Part shown: positions 22,239-29,228 of the stretch, in pieces | How the letters are laid out: each line of letters begins with the position of its first letter | Numbering within the stretch: position 1 is the first letter of the stretch | Origin: a virus | Lineage: Duplodnaviria > Heunggongvirae > Uroviricota > Caudoviricetes | DNA length: 29,228 nt | Virus record (IMG/VR): IMGVR_UViG_2778261380_000007 | Span: 1 to 29,228 of that record | Reading direction: 5' to 3' (one strand) | Translations under genes and position numbers: made by a program | The notes under the pieces: model-generated | The model's database searches: none | What the model saw: only the letters and a program-made list of their open reading frames with translations | Told to the model about the DNA's origin: nothing

Positions 22239-22862
22239 CTAACGTGTGACCGCATTCAAAATGTTGTCTGCGATTGACTCTTCTTTGTGGCATTGCACCA
22301 CCAGAGCGTCATACAGCGGCTTAACAGTGCGTGACCAGGTGGGTTGAGTAAGGTTTGGGATTAGCATCGTTACAGCGCGATATGCGGCGCTTGCTGGCAT
22401 CCTGGAATAGCCGACTCCTTTGCATCTTCCGCACTCTTTCTCGACAACTCTCCCCCACTGCTCTGTTTTTGCTATATCAACCGCACGGCCTGTACCGTGG
22501 CAATCTCTGCACCTTGCTCCCGGCGTCGCGGCACTACGGCAATAATCCGCATAAGCGAATGTTGCGAGCACTTGCAGTACCTTTGCCTTAGTATTTCCTT
22601 CAAGCTTTGCCACGCCACGGTATTTCCCCGATACCTTGTGTGCAAATTGCATCAGATAGTTGATAGCCTTTTGTTTGTCGTTCTGGCTGAGTTCGTGCTT
22701 ACCACAGAATGCAGCCATTCCGAATCCGGCTTGTGATTGCGCCATCCCCATAGCAGCCATCACATCAGTACCGGAAAGAGAGTCAGAAGCCGTAGCCCGT
22801 GGTGAGTCGCTCATCATCGGGCTTTTTGGCGAATGAAATTTAGCTACGCTTTCGAGTCTCAT
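22239..22862 (-). CDS. Q: Late gene antiterminator Q (lambda-type)
   Basis: 207-aa ORF, essentially identical to lambda Q from memory, including the Cys-rich zinc-binding region (CRDCHGTG...CGRCKG). Confidence 0.95.
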
Positions 22863-23524
22863 GCGCCTTCTCCCTGTACCTGAATCAATGTGAGATTTCC
22901 GTAGAACACTGCGCCGGTATCGATATACATCTGGTTGGCAAACTTGAGTGGTTTCACTGCTGGCGTATGACCAAAGATGAACGTGTCCGCGCCTTTGATT
23001 TCTTTCACGATCCCGTCTTGTGAGTTGCTGATTCGTTCGCGGTTCCAGATTACCTGCTGATGATCAACTGGCTTACCAAACTCGTATTCGTCACAAGGAT
23101 AATCGGCGTGGCAGATGACATATTTTTTACCTTTGCTCACCAGTTCGATGATTAACGGAAGTTCATCTGCTTTATGGGCAAGAGCTTTAGCCAGAATTTC
23201 TTTGTCGTAATCGAGATTAAAGAACCAGCCACCGCCATTAAGCAACCAGTGATTGACGTTTCCACGCTCTGATAAGCCATCAATCATCATGTGCTCATGG
23301 TTTCCACGTACAGCTCTGAACCAGGGGAATGTGATTAATTCCAGGCATTCGACGTTCTCTGTACCGCGATCGACCAAATCGCCAACCGAGATAAGCAGGT
23401 CTTTTTTGGTGTCGAATCCTATCGTCTCCAGTTTTTCCATCAGGTTCGTGTAGCATCCGTGCAGATCGCCAACTACCCAAATATTTCGGTATTTGCTGCC
23501 ATCAATTCTTTCGTAATAGCGCAT
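22859..23524 (-). CDS. ninI: Ser/Thr protein phosphatase (lambda NinI / orf221)
   Basis: Start placed at ATG 23522-23524 ([25 protein letters not shown]...), giving 221 aa and matching lambda phosphatase motifs GDLHG, GDLVDRG, GNHE; the ORF-track start at 23599 is an upstream extension overlapping ninH. Confidence 0.9.
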
Positions 23525-23708
23525 CTCTTTCACTCCATCCGCGATGAACCATGAGAACGTCGTTGACGATGGCGTGCATTTTCCCGTCTTTATCATCAAC
23601 GTATTTTCTTACCGTACCGCGACTACATTTCAGTCTGCGTGCTACTTCTGTCTGGTTTCCGTATGCTTCAACGAGCATGTCTGGAATGGTTTTTACTGAG
23701 AACGTCAT
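23502..23708 (-). CDS. ninH: NinH
   Basis: 68-aa ORF identical in length and near-identical in sequence to lambda NinH from memory. Confidence 0.9.
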
Positions 23709-24363: not shown

Positions 24364-24870
24364 TTATGGTCTGCCATGGTTTTCATGAAAACCCAGTTCT
24401 TTTTCTGCCCTCTTCCTTTCTGCAATAGCGTCAATGATGCTAGCAAATATTCCAAGATATTTGGTGCGCCCATCTACGCATATATTCGCAATCCACTTAC
24501 ATCTCTCTTTATTGAAATATACTCCAGTCACTCCTGACGAATTGGTTATTTTTCTCTTTTGGTTCTGTGCATTCTGTTGGTGTGTAACCAATCGAAGATT
24601 AGATAGCCTATTATCTGACCTTACTCCATTTATATGATCAATTTTATACCCTAATGGAATCTCACCATTATTTATCATCCATATAACGTGGTGAGCATAA
24701 GTAATTACACCATCGATAGTTAACATCCTATAACCATCACTCCTAATGTAACCAGCAACACTGCCAACCTTAACATTATTAGAAGGAGACACTTTCCATC
24801 TAAGTACACCTAAAACATCATCATATGATAATTTATTTCTTAATTCGTCTATGTTGCTTATATTTCTCAT
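24364..24870 (-). CDS. HNH homing endonuclease with AP2-like DNA-binding domain
   Basis: 168-aa ORF in a markedly AT-rich segment. N-terminal NUMOD4-like region (WKVSPSNNVKVGSVAGYIRSDGYRMLTIDGV), HNH motif (IDHINGVRSDNRLSNLRLVTHQQN), C-terminal AP2-like segment (SGVTGVYFNKERCKWIANICVDGRTKYLGIF). Confidence 0.8.
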   Translation of the reverse strand: MRNISNIDELRNKLSYDDVLGVLRWKVSPSNNVKVGSVAGYIRSDGYRMLTIDGVITYAHHVIWMINNGEIPLGYKIDHINGVRSDNRLSNLRLVTHQQNAQNQKRKITNSSGVTGVYFNKERCKWIANICVDGRTKYLGIFASIIDAIAERKRAEKELGFHENHGRP

Positions 24871-25012
24871 TATGTTCCACCATATTTAAGCATTCATATA
24901 TACAACGCTCACACACGTGAACTTCCAGCACATGCAGCTTCTGACCGCAGTTAGCGCACGTTAATGCCCGCTCGACGCTTTCTTGTTCGTAACTTCGATT
25001 TTGGTCAATCAC
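24833..25012 (-). CDS. ninF: NinF-like protein with altered C-terminus
   Basis: Core [25 protein letters not shown] matches lambda NinF; GTG start at 25010-25012 overlaps the ninE stop; the last ~12 codons overlap the start of the HNH gene and differ from lambda. Confidence 0.6.
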
Positions 25013-25191
25013 CTTGTTTTCCTCGCACGATGTCTTAGCCACCGGATATCCCACAGGTGAGCCGTGTAATTGAAGGTTTTTACATCAGATTCTTTTGGGA
25101 TTGGCTTGCGTTTATTTCTGGAGCGTTTCGTTGGAAGGTATTTGCAGTTTTCGCAGATTATGTCGGTGATACTTCGTCGCTGTCTCGCCAC
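25009..25191 (-). CDS. ninE: NinE
   Basis: 60 aa from GTG at 25189-25191 with an AAGGAGG RBS (4-nt spacing, slightly short); sequence [26 protein letters not shown]...[17 protein letters not shown] matches lambda NinE. The ORF-track start is further upstream. Confidence 0.8.
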
Positions 25192-25331
25192 ACGTCCTCC
25201 TTTTCCTGCGGTAGTGGTAACCACCCTGTTGGTGTTCTTTCACACCGGAGACACCATCGATTCCAGTAAGGTTGCCCGGGTCGAAAGCGATCGCCTTCCT
25301 TTCGCTCTCCACATCGATAACAGTGCTTCAT
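25158..25331 (-). CDS. ninD: NinD-like small zinc-ribbon protein
   Basis: 57 aa from ATG 25329-25331, which overlaps the methyltransferase stop (ATGA); CxxC...CxxC pattern ([16 protein letters not shown]...WCLRCE); same length as lambda NinD. Overlaps the ninE start by ~34 nt in another frame, so the exact boundaries are uncertain. Confidence 0.55.
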
Positions 25332-25918
25332 GCGATCACCATTTTGCATGGTTTAATCGCCATGCCGGTAGCCAGTTCAAAATCGGAGTCGCACTGATTG
25401 CCCCACATATCCCACCCGGTCACTTTGTCGCGGCTAAATAACTCACAGCGCGGCACGTCGCCAAGCAACTTAGCTAACATGTCTCTTACGATCGGTGGTT
25501 TTGCACTGTGCTCCATTCTCGGTGCGGTAAAGTGCTGGCATATGGAAGCGTCCATTCTCTCAGGCAACCGCCCTCGAACAGCAAACAAGCAATCCTCGCT
25601 ATTTGCCCTGGTCATATGCCCCATTCCGATCGCACTGTTGCCTTTGTGCTTATTGGTTTTGTGCCAGGTAAAGCCTTTCATAGTCATCAACCTGAATCCC
25701 CATGCCTCAACTACCTTTAGCGCTTCGGCTGGCTGTGTCGGCACCCACCACATCGCTAACAAGCAAGATTCTGGATCCGCTAAATCCCATACTGGCAGTC
25801 GGCAAATGTCCTGAACATTCATAACATCGTATTTATGTCCAGCACCGCGATTGCCATCGTTGGCTTTGTCGCGATATTGCCAAGGCGGATCTGCGTAAAT
25901 AAGTCGGTATTTGTTCAT
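25328..25918 (-). CDS. Orphan DNA N6-adenine methyltransferase (MT-A70-like, DPPW motif)
   Basis: 196-aa ORF; catalytic motif DPPW at residues 10-13 ([15 protein letters not shown]). No restriction endonuclease partner adjacent. Confidence 0.8.
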
Positions 25919-26355
25919 GCAGCTTTATCTCCCCATCGCGCTTTCCATTCCAGAGCCAGTCTCGCTTCGTCTGACCACTTAACGCCACGCTCTGCACCGA
26001 ATGCCTGTATAAGCTCTAATAGCTCCGCAAATTCGCCTACACGCATCCTGCTGGTTGACTGGCCTATTACCACAAAGCCATTCCCGGCAAGGTTAGGAAC
26101 AACGTCCTGCTGCTTTAATGCTGCGGTAAACACACACTTCCAGCTTTCTGCATCCAGCCAGCGACCATGCCATTCAACCTGACGCGAAACGTCACCAAGG
26201 CAAGCCCAAAGCTTCCGGTTTTGGTCTAAGCTGCGGTTGCGCTCCTGAATGGTTACTACGATTGGTTTGGTTGGGTCTGGAAGGATTTGCTGGATGGCTT
26301 GAATGGCGTTCTGCTGATGGATGGGGCTTCTTAGTTCAAACGTTAGTTTCCTCAT
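25915..26355 (-). CDS. ninB: NinB (Orf) recombination mediator
   Basis: 146-aa ORF, same length as and highly similar to lambda NinB from memory. Confidence 0.9.
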   Translation of the reverse strand: MRKLTFELRSPIHQQNAIQAIQQILPDPTKPIVVTIQERNRSLDQNRKLWACLGDVSRQVEWHGRWLDAESWKCVFTAALKQQDVVPNLAGNGFVVIGQSTSRMRVGEFAELLELIQAFGAERGVKWSDEARLALEWKARWGDKAA

Positions 26356-26572
26356 GGGATGAACTCCAGTGTGCGATGTTAAATTCCCATTTAATTACCT
26401 TTGCATACCCAATTTTGAACCCATCAATACCTATCCACCGCTTGCCACTCCAATAAGCTGTACCACTATGCTTGAAATGATGTGGATGCTTAGATTGAGT
26501 GGTCACTGTTACAGGTAAATATGGCTTCGGGTATTCCCCATTCCCTGGATAACCAGATTTAATTCTGCTCAT
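26336..26572 (-). CDS. Hypothetical small His-rich protein (78 aa)
   Basis: ATG overlaps the stop of the upstream 108-aa ORF (ATGA) and its 3' end overlaps the ninB start, giving a chain of coupled genes; no recognised motif. Confidence 0.5.
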   Translation of the reverse strand: MSRIKSGYPGNGEYPKPYLPVTVTTQSKHPHHFKHSGTAYWSGKRWIGIDGFKIGYAKVIKWEFNIAHWSSSHEETNV

Positions 26573-26895
26573 TGATACCCTCTCTCACTTAATCGCCTCC
26601 ACGCTTCGTTAAACTCTTCACGAGTTGCGCCGGATTTTCTTTCTTCAAACATCATGCATTCGCTGATGTCTCCCCATGACTTTGGTCGCTTTTCAGCGAA
26701 CAGATCATCCCATTCGAATACCCAGCGGCCTGATTTTCGGTAGTGGTAAATGGTCAGCCATGTTGTGCTGTTCGCTGGATACCCATAGAGAACTTCGACT
26801 TTTTGATCACGGTCTTTATGCTTTTTCAGCAGGATAAAGCCAGCAACCAGCGAAGCTCCGGCAAGAATGACGATTGGAATTTGCCAGTCAGCCAC
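26569..26895 (-). CDS. Hypothetical membrane-anchored protein (108 aa)
   Basis: Strong RBS (GGGGGAGAGGG) upstream of the ATG; N-terminal hydrophobic helix IPIVILAGASLVAGFILL; first gene after the tR2-like terminator. Confidence 0.6.
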   Translation of the reverse strand: MADWQIPIVILAGASLVAGFILLKKHKDRDQKVEVLYGYPANSTTWLTIYHYRKSGRWVFEWDDLFAEKRPKSWGDISECMMFEERKSGATREEFNEAWRRLSERGYQ

Positions 26896-26910
26896 ACTTC
26901 CCTCTCCCCC

Positions 26911-26942
26911 AAATAAAAAGGCCTGCGATTACCAGCAGGCCT
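26911..26942 (-). terminator. tR2-like rho-independent terminator between the helicase gene and the nin region
   Basis: - strand: AGGCCUGC-UGGUAAUC-GCAGGCCU followed by UUUUUAUUU; same position as lambda tR2 relative to the replication genes. Confidence 0.75.
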
Positions 26943-26967
26943 GTTATTAGCTCAGTGATGTAGATGG

Positions 26968-28344
26968 TCATACGTCAGCCCCTTGTGCATATCGTCTGCC
27001 ACGTGCAGCGGGTGCATTTGATGCTGTGCAAATCTGTCTGGCTTCATCCTGGTCACATGCAACAAAGTGTCCGTTGCAGAACCGTTGGTAAACCGTACCA
27101 AGCGAGCCAAAACGGTTTTTCGTCACGATGATTTCAGCAAATGGCGCGGCGCTACTGTTCTCGTCATATACCGCTTCCCGATAGAGCATGATGATTGAGT
27201 CTGCGTCCTGTTCAATGCTTCCTGAATCACGCAAATCTGCGTTTGTCGGGCGTTTGTTTGGTCGCTTCTCAACATCGCGCGAAAGCTGACTTAGGGAGAT
27301 AACTGGCGTTTTCAGGTCTTTCGCCATCGCCTTCAGGCTTCCGGAGATGTGAGCAATTGCGAGATCGTTGCGATCTGCTTTCGGCTTCTCAATCAGGCCA
27401 AGATAATCCACCATGATGAGTGACAGGTTTGGATTTTCCTGTTTGTGCCGTTCTGCGATTGAGCGTATTTCTTCGACCGATAACTGCGAGGCATCGACTA
27501 CCCATACATCCAAATCTGCAAGCTGACTCATGCCGTTAGCAACACGCGCCCATCCTTCGTCATCCATCGATGCAGGATTTCGCAGCACGCTAACCGACAT
27601 CCTCCCGGCGTTGGCAATGCTTCGCTCTGCAATCTGCAATGCGCTCATTTCCATCGAGAAAATCAACACTCCGCGCCGGACGTCAGAACCAGGAATAACG
27701 CGGCTTGCAACGCCTTCGGCAATCTTCAGCGCCAGTTCGGTTTTCCCCATACCAGGACGAGCGGCGATTATCACCAGGTCTTCCGCGTTCATCCCTCCGG
27801 TGATGGCGTCAAGTTCTTCGATTCCGGTCTTCAGGGTATCTGACTCTTCTCCGTTCCTCAGACGCCTATCAAGCGTGTCAGTGTAGTCAGTGATGATTTC
27901 CCCTAACCGTACAGGTTTAACCTCGTCACGGGGCTTTCTGATGGCTGAAAGACGCTTTACAAGCTCGTCCATCGCCTGACTCGATGTATCGATGGTTCCG
28001 CTCTGAATTGGTTCACGCATTTCATCCATGATTTCCAGCACCAGACGGCGGTGATAGTTATCCGCGACCATTCCGGCATATCCCTTCAGGTTTGCGGCGC
28101 TCGGGCAGTTTTTGCTGGTCATCAGGATTGACGTGAAATGCTCCTCTCCGCACGCCTCGGCAACCATCAGCGCGTCGATTAGGTTTCTGTTTCTCGCCTG
28201 CTTGCGGATAACCTCGAAGGCTTTCCGGTAGAGAGGAATTGAAAACGCTTCCGGCTCAAGCGTTGCCAGAACGTCACTGGCGGTTGGAGTTAATCCACCA
28301 ATCAGCAGGCCACCGATAACGCTCGCTTCGATATCCTGTCTCAT
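26968..28344 (-). CDS. Replicative DNA helicase (DnaB family; P22 gene 12-like)
   Basis: 458-aa ORF; Walker A-like [13 protein letters not shown] and downstream DnaB-type motifs; same length as P22 gp12; start overlaps the initiator stop. Confidence 0.9.
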
Positions 28345-29228
28345 GCAATCCCCCTGTCTGCAAACTTCCCTTCCCGAACTCCCGTTAACGAGTCTTCCCT
28401 CAGCAGGTAATCAAAATCAGCCGTCCAGCCCGTGTCGTTGTCTCCGAAGTAAAACGGCTTGGCCTGATGCACAAACGCCCTGACATACGCCCTGAAACCG
28501 TCCACGTTTGGCGTTTTCAGTTGCGGGATGATTTTCTTCAGGCGGCGTTTTCGTTTCTCGTTGACCGCAACAGCGTGTGGAAGTCTGTCACCGACTTCGG
28601 TGTTGTAGGCGTTCAGGAAGGATTCGTAGTCGATTCGTTCTGCCTTGCGACGTTCAGGTTTAACCTGCCCATCGCCGCCCCCGTTAGGGGGTAAGGGGGT
28701 ATTATTTATATTCTTGTTAATACCTTCTTGTTCATGATGTGCGGTTGTTTGTGCGGCTTCATGTGCGCTTTCATGTGTGGCATGTACGCTGAAAGCCGCG
28801 CCATTACTGGCTTCATCATGTGCGGCATCATGTGCGGTTGTTTGTGCGGCTTCATGTGCGGGTGAATTGTCCATTTTTTGAGCGTATTCATGGTAATTTG
28901 TGATGGTGATCACACGCCCTTTTTGCTTCTCTCCATCAATGGAAATCATCCCCTCTTTCACAAAAACCTGAAGCATCCGCTCAACCTGATCACGGCTTGC
29001 TGGCTTGCCATGCCTGTCGCATAACTGAAGACCTAAATCAGCTGCTGTCACAACCAGTTGACCGGGTTGCAGATGCCATTCATGACCTTTGAAATTCGCT
29101 TTGTATGGCTTTCTGGCGGCATTCAGGAGAAGGTTTTCCCACAGGGTGCGAAGATAAACATCTTTCGCCCATGACTGTTTCAGAATGCTCCGGTACAACG
29201 GAATGTAACCAGTTTTCTGGTTCTCCAT
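28341..29228 (-). CDS. Replication initiator (lambda O / P22 gene 18 functional analog) containing the presumed origin
   Basis: 295-aa ORF whose ATG sits exactly at the window edge, so the true start cannot be confirmed; N-terminal winged-helix-like region; His/Ala-rich repeated linker ([10 protein letters not shown] twice) encoded by iteron-like DNA repeats; lies directly upstream of the helicase. Confidence 0.75.
28737..28866. repeat. Iteron array: eight TGTGCGG-type heptamers at exact 12-bp spacing in two blocks of four, including a perfect 31-bp direct repeat; candidate replication origin
   Basis: Seen directly: heptamers start at 28738, 28750, 28762, 28774 and at 28819, 28831, 28843, 28855; 31-bp repeat at 28737-28767 and 28830-28860; AT-rich tracts flank both sides. 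Confidence 0.7.

Follow-up and report, generated by a model that had tools for sequence, protein, structure and literature searches.

The nin region of lambdoid phages holds about 10 genes per phage, drawn from a pool of 30-50 (PMC5630979, PMC8022706). These genes are dispensable in the laboratory (PMC5630979) and are packed with ATGA overlaps as a rule, translational coupling thereby being usual (PMC8022706). The ninA gene of P22 and phage 21 is a 26-aa ORF that overlaps the terminator tR2 and is the first one downstream of the replication genes. The Sf6 record gives this stretch three labels, 'gene 45, similar to phage 21 NinA', 'terminator tR2' and 'bsq6 boundary sequence', and in that phage gp46, gp47, gp48 and gp49 follow before ninB is reached. 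In lambda, the gene ren, whose product allows escape from Rex exclusion, lies upstream of tR2 and overlaps P.

Many superinfection-exclusion proteins are small and membrane-anchored, among them SieA and SieB of P22, Imm and Sp of T4 and gp15 of HK97, and those encoded by prophages are expressed in the lysogen.

The locus described here is part of the early region of an Escherichia coli lambdoid prophage and was analysed in a window of 29,228 nucleotides, the whole stretch of DNA under study. A first-pass annotation of this window had noticed two small genes, here called orf108 and orf78, had placed them in the ren/ninA position and had proposed that they were alternative immunity or exclusion cargo. 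The main value of the present analysis is that it corrects the positions of NinA, ren and tR2 relative to these two genes. Both were found to be non-core, ordinary mosaic early-gene cargo in a slot between the NinA/tR2 boundary and ninB. The best overall explanation, to which we give a probability just short of even, is that they are two independent mosaic accessory genes stacked in this slot and used in the lytic phase, with the roles proposed below.

Organization of the locus

The minus strand encodes every gene in this part of the window. The first is an O-type initiator gene, truncated by the end of the window, and after it lies the gene of a DnaB-like replicative helicase of the P22 gene 12 type (26968..28344; Pfam DnaB_C 5e-79 and DnaB 4e-13; phrog_19), whose stop codon TGA (26970-26968) overlaps the ATG of a NinA-type tiny ORF of 27 codons (26888..26971). 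This ORF, which was read directly from the sequence and is homologous to Sf6 gene 45 and to ninA of P22 and phage 21, runs through an intrinsic terminator of the tR2 type (26910..26942) and matches in position the conserved mosaic boundary, which is bsq6 in Sf6. The terminator was identified from a terminator scan, its fold, its identity to lambda and the Sf6 annotation; it has a stem of 8 bp with six G-C pairs (stem-loop 26942-26919) and the T-run tail TTTTTATTT, and is base for base the tR2 of lambda, which bears out the earlier report of a clean tR2-like terminator after the helicase gene.

The terminator is followed by the Shine-Dalgarno (SD) region GGAGAGGGAAGT (26896..26907), assigned by direct comparison with lambda, in which the same string precedes the ninB ATG, and by orf108 (26569..26895, 108 codons), which starts with a GTG at 26895 and has the SD core GAGG at 26904-26901, 5 nt 5' of the GTG. 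The start of orf78 (26336..26572, 78 codons, ATG at 26572) overlaps the orf108 stop codon TGA as ATGA and is preceded by a good SD. The orf78 stop codon (26338-26336) lies within ninB (25915..26355, ATG at 26355; Pfam NinB 3.8e-54), which encodes an orf-family recombination mediator, and the two genes overlap by 20 nt. The next nin-region gene, for an MT-A70 family DNA methyltransferase (25328..25918; Pfam MT-A70 6.7e-25; phrog_359), is joined to ninB by a further ATGA overlap. An Rfam scan of positions 25000-29228 gave no matches. The first-pass description of this arrangement was accurate except for the strand, for the NinA-type ORF at 26971-26888, which had been missed, and for the chain of overlapping stop and start codons, which was found between orf108 and orf78 but not between orf78 and ninB.

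NinA, ren and the tR2 boundary

Identity of 90% or more to the boundary stretch was found in 406 phage records, among them lambda, 434, 21, P22, L, 933W and numerous Stx phages. A 76-nt string comprising NinA, tR2 and the SD is identical to the DNA that separates ren from ninB in lambda, where it leads directly to the ninB ATG; here it leads to orf108, whose SD is the one that serves ninB in lambda. NinA was taken to be an ORF of about 26 aa that coincides with the tR2 boundary, comes right after gene 12 or ren and overlaps the start of ninB. The counterpart of NinA at this locus is the ORF at 26971-26888, and orf108 and orf78, which are unrelated to it and lie downstream, were rejected as canonical NinA proteins, a possibility that the first-pass annotation had itself raised for both ORFs. 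Given that the tiny ORF is NinA, orf108 and orf78 constitute an insert between ninA/tR2 and ninB and do not occupy the ninA position.

The placement in the ren position was also not sustained. In the prophage of E. coli E2348/69 the gene order is P, ren, tR2 boundary, orf108 and ninB, and since ren lies upstream of the boundary and coexists there with orf108, orf108 is not a replacement of ren. The likeness to lambda Ren is that of a small non-essential gene between the replication genes and ninB, but orf108 and orf78 lie downstream of tR2 and neither has sequence similarity to it. As had been stated earlier, the two proteins do not resemble Ren: BLASTP gave only chance segments of 19-25 residues (E = 0.027 for a single comparison), and no Ren family was returned for either protein in a PHROG scan.

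A recurrent cargo slot between tR2 and ninB

To describe the distribution of inserts, IMG/VR was scanned for the exact 47-nt terminator-plus-SD string, which gave 119 loci, a sample that is biased to exact boundary matches, and the downstream ninB was located in 113 of them. ninB came directly after the boundary in 86/113 loci (slot empty in about 76%), and the other 27 had inserts of 269-1390 nt between boundary and ninB, documenting this junction as a recurrent cargo slot. In 14/27 inserts orf108 was first, always at exactly the same offset. The gene that followed was orf78 in only three of these 14 (a 540-nt insert as here), and in the other 11 it was a 66-codon ORF with the length and offset of Sf6 gene 47, accompanied by other small ORFs. 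A second '108-aa' gene before ninB in one locus is unrelated to orf108. Among 5426 complete E. coli genomes, orf108 DNA was present in 108 and orf78 DNA in 25, and all 25 genomes with orf78 also carried orf108. The two genes thus have the features of nin-region mosaic accessory genes, namely a position between the replication genes and Q, tight overlapping packing and variable presence.

The ATGA overlap, which suggests translational coupling, and the finding that orf78 never occurs without orf108 in E. coli both speak for an obligate two-component module, for example a toxin-antitoxin or effector-chaperone pair. However, orf108 stands without orf78 in 83/108 E. coli genomes, as it does in Sf6 and virulent phages, homologues of orf78 adjoin unrelated genes, and ATGA overlaps are generic in nin regions (PMC8022706). 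An obligate module is very improbable on these grounds and is, in our judgement, essentially excluded; orf108 and orf78 are independently assorting accessory genes. As the tripeptide GYP is present in both proteins, distant paralogy was also checked, and it was rejected with an hhalign probability of 2%.

Expression

Both genes sit downstream of tR2 in the early-right operon, which is repressed in a lysogen, and a scan for the sigma-70 consensus, the one type of promoter searched for, found no promoter-like site on the coding strand from the helicase gene to ninB. Given the lack of an own promoter and the location behind tR2, orf108 and orf78 are probably transcribed in the lytic phase only: antitermination of the N type would read through tR2 during lytic growth, and in the lysogen the genes would be silent. 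The dependence on N is deduced from the homology of tR2 to lambda, since the window does not extend to the immunity region or to any N gene. Translation would then proceed as a coupled chain, entering orf108 from its strong SD, orf78 by the ATGA overlap and ninB by the 20-nt overlap. The two genes are most likely delayed-early accessory genes of the lytic phase.

orf108 encodes a predicted inner-membrane protein of a widespread family

The orf108 protein is 97% identical to Sf6 gp46 (AAQ12235.1) and to a protein of Salmonella phage vB_SosS_Oslo, and has been known as gp46 since the Sf6 genome record AF547987. Gp46, which also belongs to phrog_5903, is of equal length and is likewise encoded directly after the NinA/tR2 boundary, but the gene that comes next in Sf6 is that of gp47 and not orf78. 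Sf6 gp48 has an E. coli homologue to which RefSeq gives the name 'phiTE_015 family protein'. The match of orf108 to phrog_5903 is full length (E = 1.3e-75 over 1-108 of 108 positions), and all 26 aligned relatives match the same family. Single-sequence and profile searches gave 107 clusters of homologues, all of them standalone proteins of 51-149 aa in which no Pfam or extra domain was found, and every cluster with a named source organism came from Enterobacterales. In the alignment the N-terminus varies and the core is strongly conserved, with 17 residues invariant throughout (in YGYP, WLT.YH.R, FE.D.LF and RP), and the motif of the conserved domain in orf108 is YGYP..WLTIYH.R..W.FEWDDLF..RPKSW. 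Judged from the 107 clusters and the invariant residues, orf108 is a real gene.

An AlphaFold2 (AF2) model built from an alignment of 30 sequences had a mean pLDDT of 85, with values above 90 in most of the domain, and consists of a transmembrane (TM) helix, four strands and a C-terminal helix, the conserved domain accounting for about 75 aa. The hydrophobic N-terminal helix spans approximately residues 5-27, in keeping with the membrane-anchored protein with a strong ribosome binding site that had been described earlier. Such a hydrophobic segment, defined as a 17-residue window with a mean Kyte-Doolittle hydropathy of at least 1.6, was present in 62/89 family members, and the mean net charge was -1.1 before the segment and +1.3 after it. 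By the positive-inside rule, this charge pattern predicts an N-out/C-in orientation with the conserved domain in the cytoplasm, and orf108 is classed as a predicted single-pass inner-membrane protein.

The remaining family members have short N-termini, for example MKLLKWLINLF or MGKFLGKILKCF, whose helical hydrophobic moments were 0.63-0.91 in 10 of the 11 tested. This suggests peripheral membrane binding, the amphipathic signal being weak for each individual sequence. Homologues of this type without a TM helix include those of the jumbo phage Goslar, the 112-kb phage KookSpook and the seszw/IME207-type phages (Shuimuvirus, about 47 kb). The family as a whole spans lambdoid/P22-like, jumbo, 112-kb and ~47-kb (Shuimuvirus/seszw) phages, and strictly virulent phages are among its carriers.

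The homology and structure-prediction checks that had been suggested for these proteins were run. By profile match each of them belongs to a PHROG family, phrog_5903 and phrog_29435, both of which are annotated as 'unknown function'. No significant match of orf108 or orf78 was obtained in scans of Pfam and NCBIfam, no match at E <= 1 to the profiles of PADLOC-DB 2.0 and no match in sequence-profile searches of the PDB. Weak Pfam matches of orf108 to FixQ, COX6C and A13L reflect the TM helix only. Foldseek comparison of the orf108 model with the PDB gave no match at E <= 0.001, and comparison with BFVD returned only its own homologues in Goslar and IME207. Given that the domain of orf108 and Sf6 gp46 occurs in very different coliphage lineages, is modelled with confidence and has no fold match outside the family, functional screens of phage accessory genes could reasonably include it.

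These properties bear on the proposal that orf108 and orf78 are immunity or exclusion cargo, either of a Rex/Sie-like type that guards the lysogen or of a Ren-like type that guards the phage from exclusion. In its favour, orf108 shares small size and a single N-terminal anchor with SieA, SieB, Imm, Sp and HK97 gp15, it lies one gene from the ren site of lambda, and the slot holds variable cargo. Against it, neither sequence nor profile similarity connects orf108 with those proteins, the defence and domain databases and the Ren comparison gave no match, and ren and orf108 occur together in the E2348/69 prophage. Furthermore, orf108 lies behind tR2 in a lytic early operon that is repressed in the lysogen, with no promoter-like site of its own, its conserved domain is predicted to be cytoplasmic, and it has homologues in virulent phages which lack the TM helix. 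The position behind tR2, the lack of a promoter-like site, the virulent-phage homologues and the independent assortment of the two genes argue for a lytic role rather than lysogen immunity, and the exclusion proposal, though not refuted, was left unsupported and is in our view improbable.

orf78 is a conserved gene that is missing from annotations

In all 25 E. coli genomes that carry orf78 DNA, RefSeq/PGAP annotates nothing at orf78, as would be the case if orf78 were a chance ORF and the stretch between orf108 and ninB a non-coding spacer. This reading is opposed by several lines of evidence and is hardly credible; like the obligate module, it is essentially excluded. In a comparison with a 78%-identical homologue from Enterobacter ludwigii, pN/pS was 0.25 in the reading frame of orf78 and 1.2-1.5 in the two alternative frames, and 29/51 differences were at third codon positions. 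An exhaustive phmmer search of 1.8 billion representatives recovered a family of small proteins (60-72 aa) with 39-60% identity, and eight residues (Y8, P9, P15, A39, W41, S42, G43 and W62) were invariant in 12 diverged homologues. The match to phrog_29435 covers the full length (E = 1.8e-57 over 1-78 of 78 positions) and is common to all 12 aligned relatives. The AF2 model, all-beta with a short terminal helix, is confident (pLDDT 83), and the start is of the ATGA type with a good SD. On this sequence evidence, orf78 is a genuine, conserved gene that has been missed by NCBI's pipeline in every E. coli genome that carries it, and both of the small genes noticed in the first-pass annotation are real.

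The family has a core of about 62 aa (GYPGNGEYP..AYWSGxRW..KVIKW in orf78), and all its members are basic (pI 9.2-10.6) and aromatic-rich. The earlier description of orf78 as a His-rich protein refers to 6 His among 78 residues, but since four of these are in the variable loop HPHHFKH and the other family members have 0-1 His, it is not a trait of the family. Most relatives lack the C-terminal 16 residues of orf78. Since Sf6 gp49, an unrelated protein, has the same last six residues (HEETNV), these are encoded by a common 5' flank of ninB.

Foldseek comparison of the orf78 model with the PDB gave no match at E <= 0.001. A likeness to Sso7d, with a similar order of strands, had no Foldseek support and was dropped. 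DUF551 (PF04448), which was considered for orf78, was likewise rejected, as 0/13 family members matched the Pfam profile at E <= 10.

In an Enterobacter prophage an orf78 homologue directly precedes ninB, and another prophage has one before ninX. A 47-kb phage carries its homologue between the genes of a DUF3799 protein and an ERF recombinase, and two further phages have theirs near DNA methyltransferases; the upstream partner was different in each context. The protein S13c_00065 of Klebsiella phage VLCpiS13c (phrog_29435) is 54% identical to the orf78 core and has the same conserved motifs; it differs in its length of 62 aa and in the lack of both the C-terminal tail and the His cluster. Its gene stands next to a DNA methyltransferase in a small cassette that is flanked by tail genes, in a phage without a lambdoid nin region.

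Possible functions

No function could be assigned to orf108 or orf78 from Pfam, NCBIfam, PADLOC, PDB, Rfam or the searched literature, in which no functional study was found for the PHROG identifiers, the accession numbers, Sf6 gp46 or Goslar gp199. By sequence comparison, the two are further uncharacterised mosaic genes of the nin region with no homology to any characterised family.

For orf108 we propose that the N-terminal helix inserts into the inner membrane in the N-out/C-in orientation and that the aromatic-rich alpha/beta domain of about 75 aa would thereby be held on the cytoplasmic face, where it would most likely bind a host or defence protein at the membrane. In the virulent-phage relatives the TM helix appears to be replaced by a short, probably amphipathic N-terminus. 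A protein-binding effector at the membrane face, acting in host takeover or counter-defence, is a tentative assignment for orf108, and we hold it with less than even confidence. For orf78, a soluble, basic and aromatic-rich beta protein is predicted. Members of its family turn up repeatedly among phage genes for DNA metabolism, and its binding partner may therefore be nucleic acid or a protein of recombination or replication.

Somewhat more speculative is a joint reading in which the orf108 family would be a previously unrecognised takeover or counter-defence effector across enterobacterial phages and orf78 an overlooked partner in recombination or modification. The orf108 family would then represent a new small fold that is always placed at the cytoplasmic face of the inner membrane, targeted there by the TM helix in most members, including the examined prophage copies; the rest, among them the virulent-phage copies, would use a short and possibly amphipathic helix instead.

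The main rival to the effector reading, which we regard as unlikely, is that orf108 and orf78 serve the phage machinery of DNA replication or recombination as accessory factors; for example, replication might be tethered or modulated at the membrane by orf108, and NinB- or ERF-type recombination proteins might have orf78 as a partner. This would agree with the neighbours of the orf108 homologues, which mostly lie by replication genes (directly after DnaB, lambda-P, primase-helicase or DNA pol A, or beside primase), with those orf78 homologues that are found directly upstream of NinB or between the DUF3799 protein gene and ERF, and with the basic, aromatic-rich composition of orf78. However, orf108 is associated with four or more unrelated kinds of replication protein and so has no specific partner, and homologues of it were also found near an integrase in Pantoea and near a tubulin-like gene in Goslar-type phages. 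In addition, both genes are absent from most phages that have the same replication and ninB modules, and neither model has a fold likeness to DNA-binding proteins. The links to replication and recombination genes may simply reflect a position in the early operon.

Annotation and upstream neighbours of the orf78 family

The sequence matching orf78 (the 78-codon ORF preceding ninB; window 26336-26572, minus strand) was compared with the PGAP annotation of the equivalent segment in 25 RefSeq E. coli genomes, and in all 25 no gene was annotated under the match. orf78 has been left without PGAP annotation despite being under purifying selection and belonging to a PHROG family.

In two comparison loci, one from Klebsiella phage VLCpiS13c (L004 3741-4189) and one from a prophage of Enterobacter ludwigii (L009 4738-5237; coordinates are local to each locus), a gene of 85-86 aa lies upstream and the orf78 homologue begins 2 nt past it. 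The upstream gene in the Klebsiella phage belongs to DUF7740 (4e-26); for that in Enterobacter ludwigii, precomputed tables give Phage_phiTE_015, a label that was not confirmed by the Pfam scan. A DNA methyltransferase gene was found within about 1.5 kb in three of the examined contexts of the orf78 family outside E. coli, and in the window itself a gene for an MT-A70 family DNA methyltransferase (25328-25918, minus strand) follows directly after ninB with an ATGA overlap. This proximity may be coincidental.

Apparent fusions of orf108

A NinA-type tiny ORF (26888-26971, minus strand) encodes a 27-aa hydrophobic peptide through the hairpin of tR2, the lambda-type terminator upstream of orf108. 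In several genomes, indels in a G-run (GGGGGAGAGGG) bring this ORF into frame with orf108, the gene for the predicted membrane-anchored protein, and because the two frames are joined in this way, gene callers report "fusions" of 133-137 aa with two hydrophobic segments (protein records P0001-P0014). These may be either calling artefacts or real variants.

HNH endonuclease genes at module junctions

In prophages of E. coli AVS0578 and W284, HNH endonuclease genes were inserted exactly at module junctions (loci L016 1710-2297 and L017 511-1122). One of the two genes separates orf78 from ninB, and there the annotation gives the counterpart of the ninB 5' end as a pseudogene of a partial HNH endonuclease; the other lies between the helicase gene and orf108. 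Partial boundary matches under HNH genes were also observed in Stx2 phages. These placements suggest homing-endonuclease traffic at such junctions. Within the nin region of the window, after ninF, there is a 168-aa ORF (24364-24870, minus strand). The near-identical CH4794 prophage has, at the matching position, a gene annotated as "NUMOD4 motif-containing HNH endonuclease", and the 168-aa ORF probably encodes a homing endonuclease.

Other features of the window

A 246-aa ORF (22859-23599, minus strand) carries a GDLHG...GNHE motif of the kind typical for lambda-type Ser/Thr phosphatases; a short way downstream of it comes a 207-aa ORF that occupies the late antiterminator position. In the O-type initiator gene (28341-29228, minus strand), imperfect 12-nt tandem repeats at 28750-28861 encode a His/Ala-rich repeat in the central part of the O-like protein, and these repeats are similar to the origin with iterons that is annotated within the Sf6 counterpart of this gene.
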